A stretch of 30,902 nucleotides of DNA from Gemmatimonadota bacterium (GTDB lineage Bacteria > Latescibacterota > UBA2968 > UBA8231): NCBI GenBank assembly GCA_038153405.1, contig JAYOYH010000051.1, positions 1 through 30,902 on the forward strand, read 5' to 3'. This document shows positions 454 through 4,850 of this stretch, piece by piece. A program made the translations under genes and the position numbers. A model generated the notes under the pieces. It searched no databases, had not been told where the DNA came from, and was given only the letters and a program-made list of their open reading frames with translations. Position 1 is the first letter of the stretch. Every line of letters begins with the position of its first letter.

Positions 454-1488
454 ATGGCTAGGAGAGAAAAGGTGCGCGCGGTGCTGGTTGGCTGCGGCGG
501 CATGAGTCGCGCCTGGCTTTCGGCGGCGAGCGAACGCAGCGACTTGGAACTAGTCGGTCTCGTCGATATCGACAAGAAAAATGCGCGCTGGCGCGCCGAA
601 GAGTATCGCTTGGAAAACGCGGAGGTGGGCAGCGATCTCAAGGCCGTGCTGCGCGATGTAAATCCCGACGTGGTCTTTGACGTAACGGTGCCGTCGGCTC
701 ATACCGATGTAACCGTTACGGCGCTGCGCCACGGCTGTCACGTGCTGGGCGAAAAGCCGCTGGCCGATTCCATGGCCAATGCGCGGCGTTCGCTGCGCGC
801 GGCGGAAAAGGCCGGTAAAATCTATGCTGTCATTCAGAATCGACGCTATACCCCCCATATTCGTCGCCTGCGCCGCCTGCTAGCCAAAAACCCCCTTGGC
901 CCATTGACGACAGTCAACTGCGATTTCTATATCGGCGCACACTTTGGAGGGTTTCGCGACCGCATGGAGCACGTGCTGCTGCTCGATATGGCGATACACA
1001 CCTTTGATCAGGCGCGCCTCATTACCGGAGCCGATCCCGTTTCGGTCTACTGTCAGGAGTGGAATCCGGCCGGCTCGTGGTATGACCACGATGCGTCGGC
1101 CATCTGCATTTTTGAGATGAGCGATGGGCTGGTTTTCACTTACCGCGGCAGTTGGTGTGCCGAGGGGCTCAATACGAGCTGGGAGTGCGACTGGCGCATC
1201 ATCGGCACGCGGGGCAGCGCCACGTGGGACGGCGGTGAGGGCATCTGCGCTCAAGCGGTGAAAAAAGGCGGTGGGTTCCACGCGCAGATGCGCGACCTGC
1301 CGGTGCCGGTGCTGGCCGCTAGGGATCGGGTCGGCGGGCACGCCGGCCTAATCGACGAGTTTGTCGATTGCGTGCGCCGCGGCCGCGTGCCCGAGACGGT
1401 GTGCACGGATAATATAAAGAGTTTGGCGATGGTCTTTGCGGCGATCGAGAGCGCTAAAAGGGGGCGCAAGGTCGCGGTGAAGTACTAG
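454..1488 (+). CDS. Gfo/Idh/MocA family oxidoreductase
   Basis: GGAGG RBS before ATG 454; Rossmann GCGGMS, HVLGEKPLA, DMAIHTFD motifs. Confidence 0.92.
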   Translation: MARREKVRAVLVGCGGMSRAWLSAASERSDLELVGLVDIDKKNARWRAEEYRLENAEVGSDLKAVLRDVNPDVVFDVTVPSAHTDVTVTALRHGCHVLGEKPLADSMANARRSLRAAEKAGKIYAVIQNRRYTPHIRRLRRLLAKNPLGPLTTVNCDFYIGAHFGGFRDRMEHVLLLDMAIHTFDQARLITGADPVSVYCQEWNPAGSWYDHDASAICIFEMSDGLVFTYRGSWCAEGLNTSWECDWRIIGTRGSATWDGGEGICAQAVKKGGGFHAQMRDLPVPVLAARDRVGGHAGLIDEFVDCVRRGRVPETVCTDNIKSLAMVFAAIESAKRGRKVAVKY

Positions 1489-1507: not shown

Positions 1508-2518
1508 TCAGCCCACTTGGATGCCCTGCACCTGGAAGACTTCGCGAAGAAAGTGTTCGCCCATGAGGCGGTAGCCCTCGGCGTTGGGATGCAGGTTGTC
1601 CGGAAGCAGGTGGGCGAGCTCTTCGCCGAAGAGCTTCAGGCCATCGACGTAGTAGATATGCGCATCGCCGCGCCGCCGGAACGACTCGACGGCTTCCTGC
1701 ACTTCAATGCGCATGTGCTGTAGCGTTAGGCCCACGGCGTTGGGCGTTTCTTCGCGATCGTGCCCCCAGATGGGCGAACACACGACAAAGGGCGTGTCGG
1801 GATGGCCATCGCGGATGGTGGCGATGGTGCCGAGAATAGCCGGTCGAAAGGTGCGCGGTCCGAGGCTAGATCCGCCGTAAATATTGATGCCGATTTTGAC
1901 GGAGAGAAAGTCGGCCGGCCGGTCGCGGATTAGGCGGGCCATCATGGGGTCGGCGTGGCACTGGCCGCCAAAGCCGAACGACGTCAGGTTGAAGTCCATG
2001 CCGCGTGCCACGACGCCCGGCCAGGTAAAGGAGGGCGAGCCGGCCGTGCGGCAGTGGGTGATAGACGAGCCGTAGGTGACCCATTTGCGCCGATGGTCTT
2101 CGCTCTTTTCCAACCCGCTGCCCTCGGGAATTTCGATAGAGCGCACGGCCACCGGCATAGCCTGAGAGAGCCACAGTTCGAGCGCGTTGTCGCCGGTGGG
2201 CAGGTTGCCAAATTCGGTGGCGGTCTGACCGGCGGCAAAGTCGACGGTGGCGACCAGATCGCCGTTGGCATAGAGGTCGAAGTTGCCCGCTTCGGCTAGC
2301 GGTTCGGTGTGCAGCGTGAGGGCTGTGGCATCGCTGGCAAAGCGCATGCGCACGCCGGAGGCCATTTCGGCGCGCCCGGCCAATTCGCTGACGCCCGGCG
2401 AATAGAGATCCTGGTCTTCGTGGGGAATGCGCCAGGGCTTGATCCATCCGTCGCCCCGTTCGAGCGAGGCGATGCCGCCCCAGCACAGGCGCGGGTCGTC
2501 GGCGGGTATGGTGGGCAT
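1508..2518 (-). CDS. SGNH/GDSL hydrolase with N-terminal beta-sandwich (SsfX3-like)
   Basis: YGSSITH block I, GFGG, GIN, DNLHPN (DxxH) motifs. Confidence 0.85.
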   Translation of the reverse strand: MPTIPADDPRLCWGGIASLERGDGWIKPWRIPHEDQDLYSPGVSELAGRAEMASGVRMRFASDATALTLHTEPLAEAGNFDLYANGDLVATVDFAAGQTATEFGNLPTGDNALELWLSQAMPVAVRSIEIPEGSGLEKSEDHRRKWVTYGSSITHCRTAGSPSFTWPGVVARGMDFNLTSFGFGGQCHADPMMARLIRDRPADFLSVKIGINIYGGSSLGPRTFRPAILGTIATIRDGHPDTPFVVCSPIWGHDREETPNAVGLTLQHMRIEVQEAVESFRRRGDAHIYYVDGLKLFGEELAHLLPDNLHPNAEGYRLMGEHFLREVFQVQGIQVG

Positions 2519-2610
2519 GGTATTCGTCCTTTAGCTGCTGTTAGCGGGTTGCAATGGGTGCGCAGCTAATCTAACGCGCCGGCGAGTGCCTGTCATGTTA
2601 TTCCGTGAAC

Positions 2611-2859
2611 GGGTGGAGCCCCGACCAAACGAGGTCGAGGCTCCGTCCTGGGGCAACGCGGTAATGGACTTCAGCCCGCGTTAACAGAGTGGGGTTTGCC
2701 GGAGCGCTGCCACTTCGAAGGCGCGTCCGCTCCGCGCTCACCGCGTGCCAACGGCATGCAGGAGTCGCGACCCCGCTGTCACTGGGGCCATGACAGAAAC
2801 GGGGCTATCGCGCGCGAAAGCGAAAGCGAGGCGCTCCGATTGAAAAGCGCAACCCCCCT
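2611..2859 (-). ncRNA. Candidate structured non-coding RNA; 3' part possibly Acido-Lenti-1-like (unverified recall)
   Basis: At least seven helices: 2611-2648 hairpin; 2655-2661/2676-2682; 2691-2696/2851-2856; 2700-2707/2831-2838; 2743-2749/2753-2759; 2766-2781/2791-2812 with bulges. TATAGT -10-like box on minus strand at 2871-2866. Strand uncertain: G-U wobbles and GAAA loops favour +. Confidence 0.6.
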
Positions 2860-2916
2860 ATTCAAACTATATCGGCACTTTCATTAGCAACTTTAACGAT
2901 TTTAAAATAAAAAACA

Positions 2917-2941
2917 TAAGTCATTTATTAATAAATACTTA
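2917..2941. repeat. AT-rich imperfect palindrome TAAGT-C-ATTTATTAATAAAT-ACTTA
   Basis: Directly visible inverted repeat within a very AT-rich tract (about 2880-2975). Confidence 0.7.
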
Positions 2942-2975
2942 AAATGTAAAATTTATGAGTTGTGTTCTGATTTTG

Positions 2976-4112
2976 CTACAGAGGTATGCCTTTCCAGGCG
3001 CAGATTCCCTCTAGTAGACTGGCGCCGAGGCGGCGATAGGCTTGGCGGGTGAAGACCGTATCGCGGCAGGTGGCATAGGGTATTTCCAGCGTTAGACAGG
3101 GAATTTGCCACGTTTCCCAAGCGTAGTTGTCGAGGGTGGCTTGCGCATCCCAGCGCGACGGATAGCTCGGCTGGTGCAGCAGGTCGGCATGGACGAGTTC
3201 GGTCGGTAGCAAGGGGGCGATGGCTTCGATGGCTTGGCGCGCCGCCTGCAACTGCAGTTCGGGGCGGTTGGCGCGCGGCAGAAAGAAATAGGCGCCATCG
3301 GTTTCGCCTGGTCCCGGCGCATGCAGGTCAAGCACAAGGGCAGGGGTGCAGCGCTGCTGCCAACGATGCATATCGCTCTGGATGACGCCGACTTCGTGGC
3401 GCATGGGCGGCGTGCTCCAGGCGCGGTTCAGGTCCCAGGGGAAGGGGTCTTTGCCGTAGTCGCCCTCTACGACGCCGTCCATATGGGCCAGCGGCGTGGT
3501 CCATATGAGCAACTGTGCGGGGTCGAGGGACTGTGCGGCGCGGCGCAGCAGGCCATCCAGCACCCACGAGCTCGGCATCTCGCCGGCGTGCTGTCGGGCA
3601 ATGGCGTAGAGACCGGGGACCCCGTCGCCGCGATAATTGTTGGCTAGGCGCGGCAGGGGGTTGCCCCGACTCGTGACGCCGATCAGGTCGAGTTCCCAGT
3701 AGCTGCCGCAGGCGGCGCGCGTCATCTCCAAGTCGCCCAGCCCGTAGGGGTAGCAGAAAGCCACTTCAAACGCGTCGTAGCTGGGCTGGATGTGCCAAAC
3801 GACCTGGTGGCGCCCGTCGTCTAAGATTTCTACTGCGCCCGTTTCAAGGCGCTCCCAGGTGGCGCCGGCCTGGCGCCATACGGGCTGTGCGCGCTGCCAG
3901 TTGTGCGCGCCGCCTAAGCAGGAGTCGACGTTGGTCAGGACGATATCTACGGGGCGATCGGAGCACTCGACGAGGCGGAAGTAGAACCACAGCGCCTCGG
4001 TACCGCCGTGTGGATCGGCGGCAAAATAGACGATGTCGCGCTCGCTCGTCGAGCGGATATCTATGGCGCAGGCGTTGCCGCCGGGAAATTGAGTTTGCAC
4101 GTGTAGCGACAT
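2976..4112 (-). CDS. M14 family zinc carboxypeptidase (cytosolic-type)
   Basis: Start re-assigned to MSLHVQTQFPGGN (GAGG RBS); WFYFR, RQHAGE (HxxE), DLNR, LDLHA, TLE motifs. Confidence 0.85.
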   Translation of the reverse strand: MSLHVQTQFPGGNACAIDIRSTSERDIVYFAADPHGGTEALWFYFRLVECSDRPVDIVLTNVDSCLGGAHNWQRAQPVWRQAGATWERLETGAVEILDDGRHQVVWHIQPSYDAFEVAFCYPYGLGDLEMTRAACGSYWELDLIGVTSRGNPLPRLANNYRGDGVPGLYAIARQHAGEMPSSWVLDGLLRRAAQSLDPAQLLIWTTPLAHMDGVVEGDYGKDPFPWDLNRAWSTPPMRHEVGVIQSDMHRWQQRCTPALVLDLHAPGPGETDGAYFFLPRANRPELQLQAARQAIEAIAPLLPTELVHADLLHQPSYPSRWDAQATLDNYAWETWQIPCLTLEIPYATCRDTVFTRQAYRRLGASLLEGICAWKGIPL

Positions 4113-4184
4113 GGGCCTTTTTCCTCGGAGTAGTAGCTCGAAAAATAACGCCAATTGGCGTGCTAATGCCAAAGGGAGGATTGC

Positions 4185-4850
4185 ATGGATCTGGTCGAAA
4201 CCGCCGACGGCTCGCATACGCTTGCTGCGCCCTATCCCGGCGAGCACTACCACTCGACGCACGGTGCGCTGCGCGAGAGCCAGCACGTATTCGTGCGCCA
4301 CGGCGTGGCCGACCTCGGGCCGCGCGCGCGCATCGGCGTGCTCGAAATGGGATTTGGCACGGGGCTCAACGCCCTGTTGACGCGACTTTTTGCCCTGCAA
4401 TACCGCCAGCCGATCGACTACGTAGCGGTTGAATCCGAACCGCTCAACGCGGCGGTTGTCGCCCAGCTCAACTATCCGCAAGTCGTCGATGGGGCCGGCG
4501 CGCTCTTCGCCGAACTGCACGATCTGACATGGGGTCCGACTGCCCGCTTAGACCCGTTTTTTTCGCTGGAAAAAGTGCACGCGCGCATCGAAGAAGTCGA
4601 TTTGCATGCGCGCTTTGATGCGGTTTATTACGACGCCTTTGGTCCGGGCTACCAGCCGGAGTTGTGGACGCAAGAGGCTTTCGCGCGCGTCTACGATGTA
4701 CTCGTGGTCGGGGGTGTCTTGGTTACCTACTGCGCCAAGGGACAGGTCAAACGCGATCTGCGCGCGGTGGGCTTTGCGGTGGAGAGTCTGCCGGGGCCAC
4801 CCGGCAAGCGCGAGATGACGCGAGCGCGCAAGGTGGCGCAGAATACCTAA
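4185..4850 (+). CDS. mnmD: tRNA mnm5s2U34 methyltransferase MnmD (stand-alone MnmC methyltransferase domain)
   Basis: TADGSHTL, EHYHSTHGALRESQHVF, LEMGFGTGLN, YYDAF, PELW, GPPGKREM; GGAGG RBS. Confidence 0.9.
   Translation: MDLVETADGSHTLAAPYPGEHYHSTHGALRESQHVFVRHGVADLGPRARIGVLEMGFGTGLNALLTRLFALQYRQPIDYVAVESEPLNAAVVAQLNYPQVVDGAGALFAELHDLTWGPTARLDPFFSLEKVHARIEEVDLHARFDAVYYDAFGPGYQPELWTQEAFARVYDVLVVGGVLVTYCAKGQVKRDLRAVGFAVESLPGPPGKREMTRARKVAQNT

Follow-up and report, generated by a model that had tools for sequence, protein, structure and literature searches.

We identified, in a 30,902-nt contig of a bacterium assigned to Latescibacterota (JAYOYH010000051.1, analyzed over its whole length and called the window below), a structured RNA of about 250 nt that is a real, uncatalogued family of narrow range. 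The RNA locus sits between the genes for an M14-type peptidase and a GDSL esterase, both on the minus strand (Table 1). The unit is quite probably a non-coding RNA that is driven by the flagellar sigma factor FliA and has some function and, as judged from comparison with a sister genus, it likely descends from a secreted-protein gene by internal deletion. As for what the RNA does, our preferred reading, which we hold tentatively, is that this FliA-made, gene-derived small RNA (sRNA) may damp flagellin translation by antisense pairing.

Table 1. Features of the RNA locus, its neighbors and related sites. Positions are those of the window unless another locus is named.
Feature	Position	Strand	Remarks
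Predicted RNA	2610..2862	minus	~250 nt; covariance-model R1 match 2610-2862; both ends inferred from promoter spacing and terminator
Sigma-28-type -35 element, TAAAGTTG	2888..2895	minus	7/8 bases match the E. coli consensus (PMC2859248)
Sigma-28-type -10 element, GCCGATAT	2869..2876	minus	7/8 bases match the consensus; 11 nt from -35; overlaps TATAGT
5' purine run	2853..2860	minus	Contributes to P1; likely relic Shine-Dalgarno of the ancestral gene
Multibranch 5' domain, P1-P6	2691..2856	minus	Folds of 7 homologs and covariation
P1	2849-2856/2691-2699	minus	
P2	2831-2838/2700-2707	minus	
P3	2813-2824/2726-2736	minus	
P4	2790-2812/2766-2782	minus	
P5	2753-2764/2737-2749	minus	
P6	2709-2722	minus	
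P6 loop segment UUCGAAGUGGCA, candidate seed	2708..2719	minus	Complementary to codons 1-5 of the flagellin upstream of flaG-fliD
Near-invariant 3' module	2645..2683	minus	P7 stem (this genus only) around a GGRC-URRA-GUCC mini-hairpin, then UGCCCC
Intrinsic-terminator-like hairpin	2615..2644	minus	7/11 pairs changed on both sides; 100% of cells paired
Downstream gene, SsfX3-like GDSL esterase	1508..2518	minus	Pfam PF21181, PF14606, PF13472; possible read-through target
Upstream ORF, M14-type carboxypeptidase-like	2976..4520	minus	Pfam PF18027; synteny anchor; true start likely internal
Frameshift spot in ancestral ORF, G071	L121 ~3160-3190		
Frameshift spot in ancestral ORF, G020	L126 ~1400-1420		
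Frameshift spot in ancestral ORF, G011	L136 ~1840-1860		

Identity and distribution of the RNA

A preliminary description of this DNA had placed a stand-alone structured non-coding RNA at 2691..2859 (~170 nt), with a minus-strand promoter and a start near 2859. The nature of the element and a start in this region are supported by homologs, covariation, a terminator, the lack of an Rfam match and RNA-library contigs. The proposed extent proved too short: the conserved unit reaches ~2610, which adds a 3' module and a terminator, and conservation across homologs spans ~2610 to 2895, promoter included.

A DNA search of 61 genomes returned matches in eight, namely, this genome, five of its seven congeners, one sister-genus genome that matched in the promoter only and one genome with a chance match. 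Using a covariance model built from two sequences, we found the RNA as a single copy in 6 of 76 genomes of the family, all belonging to one genus, and the reading as a repeat element (REP) was dropped because the element is single-copy. Pattern scans of metagenomes left seven homologs among 10 stretches, and five pattern-scan matches were discarded as chance (L034, L038 and L039 of 10; L043 and L046 of 7). Congeners G003 and G007 have no RNA at the locus, and the esterase gene there directly abuts a methyltransferase gene.

Rfam yielded no match at the gathering score, either for the whole window or for seven homolog loci, and only three chance-level matches (E 3.7-5.6) when E values up to 10 were admitted; none of the Rfam riboswitch aptamers matched the RNA locus or its homologs, and ARAGORN found nothing in the whole window. 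The initial impression that the element is no tRNA, tmRNA, RNase P RNA, SRP RNA or riboswitch thus held. Standard copies of three of these RNAs occur among the carriers, with SRP RNA elsewhere in this genome, RNase P RNA in four of five and tmRNA above the cut-off in two of five carrier genomes, and these identities were rejected for the element; this assembly gave no tmRNA or RNase P RNA match, and both genes are likely unassembled. In the absence of a full-length match, the novelty stands against Rfam. No description of the RNA was found in Rfam or in the open-access literature searched, and the supplementary tables of large RNA-motif surveys could list it. As for an ORF of its own, the aligned homologs show, by inspection, no common start codon or frame after the 5' purine run. 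Sponges of the CsrB/RsmZ type carry many GGA motifs in loops; this identity was rejected as well, given that the RNA has only five GGA in 258 nt, of which several lie in stems; CsrA and FliW are present nonetheless.

Promoter and strand

The promoter TAAAGTTG-n11-GCCGATAT (2895-2869) matches 14 of 16 bases of the E. coli sigma-28 consensus given as TAAAGTTT-n11-GCCGATAA (PMC2859248), and the pattern is kept in all six RNA-carrying genomes, all seven metagenome homologs and all five sister-genus loci. A TATAGT box had previously been taken for the -10 element. This box is present on the minus strand (2871-2866), but the promoter is of the sigma-28 type instead, and homologs differ in this hexamer, whereas all of them keep GCCGAT, which overlaps it, and TAAAGT upstream. 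The sigma-28 motif occurs at 34 sites in this genome compared with 15 in the reversed control; six sites precede five flagellin genes and one precedes flgM. FliA itself is found above the cut-off in this genome and in all seven congeners. We predict from these features that the RNA is transcribed from the minus strand by FliA. All homologs have a strongly AT-rich tract upstream of the promoter (2880-2960 here, where the genome averages 59% GC); it might serve as an UP element.

The strand, which had been left undecided at first, is now assigned as minus by the promoter, the excess of G-U over A-C and the tail of the terminator. When the seven full-length rows are read as the minus strand, there are 53 G-U cells and 12 A-C cells; in an unfitted alignment, 24 of 139 cells are G-U and one is unpaired.

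Structure and transcription

All twelve helix strands named in the preliminary description were found where it had placed them, including the pairs of GGGGTT (2691) with AACCCC (2851), of CGGAGCGC (2700) with GCGCTCCG (2831) and of GCGTGCC (2743) with GGCATGC (2753), as well as the bulged arm 2766-2781/2791-2812. Relative to dinucleotide shuffles, the region 2680-2870 folds with z -2.59 on the plus strand (4 of 200 shuffles as good) and z -2.82 on the minus strand (0 of 200). Folded one by one and compared with 40 shuffles apiece, 7 of 11 homologs adopt a similar branched structure in the 5' domain (z -1.2 to -3.2), with P2 and P6 weaker in G002, G004 and L033. The G006 lineage, represented by four sequences, no longer folds strongly in its 5' domain (z -0.1 to +1.1), yet its promoter, terminator and 3' module are retained. 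In a model-fitted alignment of the 5' domain, 330 of 371 cells are paired and 32 of 58 pairs have changed on both sides, a count that covers seven full-length rows from four lineages and is inflated by the fitting to the structure; three reverse-strand terminator matches and four partial rows were left out. The helices are preserved across 5' domains that are 60-69% identical. In a plain alignment of 11 sequences the 5' domain is misaligned, and RNAalifold accordingly returned little beyond the 3' half. Collection of homologs followed by covariation analysis, as had been suggested, produced homologs with covarying helices. At the GCGAAA repeat of P3 (2814-2825), the RNA contigs of two studies are 6 nt shorter, a natural length variant.

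Covariation of the terminator and the 3' half was assessed in a plain MAFFT alignment of 10 loci from two genera, in which 99.3% of the cells pair. The U-rich tail of the terminator is clear in G002, G004, G006 and the sister genus and poor in this genome, in which a simple terminator scan did not call the hairpin.

Part of the region 2400-3100 is contained in RNA-library data of six runs from three studies; in runs X3-X6, the share of its sequence words is small. In all four of the runs mapped first, contigs cover 2647-2849 or part of it, those from runs of two studies ending at both 2647 and 2849; these contigs are unstranded and shallow, and the runs were chosen using this stretch of DNA. 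Parts of the contig without RNA cover were given no weight as evidence, and scattered RNA pieces occur elsewhere on the contig, over 20 kb. Two other runs (X5 and X6) contain pieces, 2498-2639 and 2454-2603, that lie downstream of the terminator or reach into it and do not cover the RNA body; the first of these runs from the terminator into the esterase gene. Together, the contigs give a weak hint of a discrete RNA from this locus and leave room for read-through.

Probable origin from a decayed gene

In five sister-genus genomes, the same peptidase neighbor is accompanied by the same promoter, 5' purine run, 3' module and terminator. The G071 unit (~710 nt) consists of the promoter, a Shine-Dalgarno sequence, a signal-peptide ORF with one frameshift, the stop codon of which falls inside the 3' module, and the terminator; at the position of the purine run, this unit has AGGAGG followed by ATG, and AGGRGG is found in all five sister-genus loci. 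The G020 unit (~716 nt) contains a broken copy of the ORF, and remnant units of ~284, ~233 and ~196 nt are present in G031, G062 and G074, respectively. Intact homologs of ~215 aa are encoded behind sigma-28-like promoters in G021 and G026. No Pfam family was found for the ancestral ~215-aa protein, and the clusters that a protein atlas returned for it have a cohesin domain in 16-25% of their members. Since what lies between this promoter and the shared 3' module and terminator in the sister genus is a decaying gene for a secreted, cohesin-like protein, the RNA likely replaced that gene.

Traces of the coding sequence were also sought in the 5' domain itself. Aligned to the G071 unit, the 5' domains of G000 (this genome) and G001 beat 100 of 100 mononucleotide shuffles, that of G002 beat 99 and that of G005 beat 90; the alignments of G004 and of the G006 lineage to this unit were not significant. 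An nhmmer profile search gave E 0.074 on a segment around P6, so that homology to the ORF is modest.

In G071, G020 and G011, which represent two genera, a frameshift interrupts the ancestral ORF at one and the same place (Table 1), with spacers of 5, 7 and 8 nt compared with 6 nt in the intact G021, and the flanking coding sequence stays recognizable. Two ORF copies (G011 and G031) have ATA at the start position. The G074 remnant (L125) contains several short perfect hairpins, unlike the 5' domain of this genus, and possibly represents an independent path from a gene to a structured RNA.

Proposed flagellin pairing and alternative readings

Our preferred reading can be laid out as follows. 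FliA would drive a stand-alone sRNA of ~250 bases from the minus strand, and the exposed P6 loop would base-pair with the main flagellin mRNA at its first codons. Such pairing would lower flagellin translation and thereby damp filament synthesis. In a host where no Hfq was found, the multibranch scaffold would shield the RNA and expose its seed in a loop, and the older 3' module might supply stability or a protein-binding site. FliA would thus turn on both flagellin and its damper, forming an incoherent feed-forward loop. More speculative is the evolutionary form of this proposal, under which a cohesin-like mRNA of the flagellar regulon collapsed by deletion and four of its old codons were co-opted as an Hfq-free loop seed, with the steps from intact gene via frameshifted copy and deletion remnants to folded regulator still preserved among relatives.

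Only two 9-mers are common to the four well-folded lineages, and one of them, UCGAAGUGG, lies in the P6 loop, which is largely unpaired in 4 of 7 homologs and only partly open in G002, G004 and L033. A 12-bp duplex between the seed and the flagellin, with one G-U, is predicted in four of the five genomes tested (G000, G001, G002 and G005); G006, where the flagellin start differs at one base, gives no seed duplex, and a matching flagellin start was not recovered in the G004 genome. Among 4068 crudely called gene starts, three contain the exact 9-mer site, and the target flagellin ranks second by energy with the 9-mer and fifth with a 14-mer. Estimated after the fact, the chance of a match is ~0.005-0.007 for that 9-mer against 7-9 flagellins and ~0.03 for the whole RNA against seven flagellins, and it is higher if any flagellar gene is counted. 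The target site is also found in G020 and G031, the units of which have no complement, so its conservation lends no independent support to pairing. Among the homologs compared, seed and target show no two-sided compensatory change. Furthermore, the ancestral ORF contains codons that match the seed, so that the seed may have been inherited rather than selected for pairing. Hfq (PF17209) was found in none of five genomes that are 83-94% complete, in a search for which the control was positive in 5 of 14.

Several features of the flagellin genes deserve mention in their own right. The leader of the main flagellin gene (G000:C1 181840-182014) contains two sigma-28 sites, four ANGGA motifs and conserved hairpins, one of which carries GGA in its loop. 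This arrangement fits CsrA-FliW control, for which ANGGA, or GGA in a loop, is the motif. This genome has nine Flagellin_N matches, including a divergently transcribed pair that shares an intergenic region with two sigma-28 sites. An unannotated 233-aa ORF (G000:C19 20081) begins with an 11-nt complement of the seed; it may be another target, or the match may be due to chance.

A possible, if doubtful, alternative is that the working part of the FliA-made RNA is the 3' module, which would bind a protein or another RNA, the 5' domain being a folded spacer and the flagellin match due to chance. The module is older than the rest and is the most conserved part of the RNA: its exact pattern is present in 10 of 132 genomes of the class and absent from the reversed control, and the module additionally occurs in G005 and, in a divergent form, in G011. 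It sits outside the terminator stem, has survived both where coding sequence was deleted in different ways (G031, G062 and G074) and where the seed was lost (G006 lineage), and is near-invariant between two genera, the neighboring M14 proteins of which are just 59-67% identical; its mini-hairpin tolerates G-U/A-U exchange. However, no mRNA target of the module stands out among the matches listed, either genome-wide or at gene starts, and this reading does not account for the retention, in four lineages, of both the loop 9-mer and a 5' domain with covarying helices. Action of the 3' module and pairing with flagellin can both be true together. Within the module, CCAUUACCGCGU (2654-2668, minus strand) resembles, in the same sense and with one extra base, the start of a second flagellin paralog, ATGCCATTACGCGT, which is seen in six genomes (G000:C8 103859 onward); the resemblance may be a chance one.

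We consider it unlikely that the RNA is a 5' leader or attenuator that puts the GDSL esterase under FliA, perhaps with ligand or protein control. The esterase gene lies downstream in the same direction in all six carrier genomes of this genus and in G071, the U-tract is poor here, the two RNA contigs of runs X5 and X6 lie between the terminator and the esterase gene, and the invariant GCCCC offers the 5' G-run an alternative pairing partner. However, in four of five sister-genus loci the next gene is convergent, yet the promoter, module and terminator remain; G003 and G007 have the esterase with no RNA upstream; there is a separate sigma-70-like site at 2596-2568 (one found versus 0.4 expected by chance); and, as stated above, no riboswitch family matches.

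That the unit is a non-functional or fading pseudogene relic, retained for its terminator alone, appears distinctly unlikely. The likely descent from a decayed gene, the absence from the locus in G003 and G007, the degenerate 5' domain of the G006 lineage and the restricted range would all fit such a relic. Against it stand the promoter, which is intact in all 11 genome loci, the near-invariance of a 3' module located outside the terminator stem and the preservation of helices at the sequence divergence given above.

Finally, a role like that of 6S RNA or Ms1, which had been raised in the preliminary description, has little in its favor, and a divergent RNA polymerase-binding RNA of this kind, possibly tuned to the FliA holoenzyme, is very improbable. 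6S RNA is a long hairpin with a central single-stranded bubble. The RNA described here shares with 6S/Ms1 a closing stem, a size of ~180 nt (for the 5' domain), an intergenic location and a promoter of its own. No other 6S RNA was found: RF00013 is unmatched in this genome and in five of five congeners searched, and the spacer between zapA and the following gene, which we take to be RNase-Y-like, is only 74 nt; the RF00013 control was positive in only 5 of 14 genomes, so this blank says little. By contrast with 6S/Ms1, the RNA matches no model, folds into branched structures without a long two-sided central bubble of the canonical kind, is restricted to one genus and missing at the locus in two congeners, and has a sigma-28 promoter and apparent coding-gene ancestry. 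There are four genes with a ZapA domain in this genome.

Comparison with known systems

The closest parallels in regulation are the sigma-28-dependent sRNAs of E. coli, namely, UhpU, MotR, FliX and FlgO, which are under flagellar sigma control, as this RNA is predicted to be, three of them pairing with fliC mRNA and FliX lowering flagellin (PMC10578931). According to the same account, the E. coli sRNAs are UTR-derived, Hfq-bound and enterobacterial, and pair inside the fliC coding region (PMC10578931), whereas the RNA reported here fills a whole transcription unit, has a covarying multibranch domain and would pair at the start codon in genomes where Hfq was not found. The likeness is one of description, with sequence comparison made through Rfam alone. 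UhpU is reported to have acquired its FliA promoter late (PMC12704781). CJnc170/FlmR of Campylobacter jejuni, a member of another phylum that we again liken by description, is a FliA-dependent sRNA, and its overexpression shortens flagella and lowers motility (PMC11187230).

In the literature searched, sigma-28-dependent sRNAs and ORF-derived sRNAs are reported for well-studied cultured bacteria only. If our preferred reading is correct, both kinds of sRNA extend to a lineage defined from metagenomes, and one where no Hfq was found. Target and seed being specified, the question of how a new regulatory RNA gains its fold and its seed becomes testable. Even if flagellin pairing fails, the 3' module is a conserved, unexplained RNA element that has outlived its gene several times.

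With regard to origin, the nearest counterpart is OxyS, an sRNA that replaced a peroxidase gene (PMC8825220). As described there, the sRNA took the place of a protein gene at the same locus under retained promoter control, and the 3' coding end, 3' UTR and terminator of the parent gene were kept (PMC8825220). In the present case, both ends of the old mRNA seem to have been fused by internal deletion into a multibranch RNA of 250 nt, and the setting is the flagellar regulon. Extant relatives show the gene at several stages of decay, a graded series along which one can trace how a covarying RNA structure arose from coding sequence.
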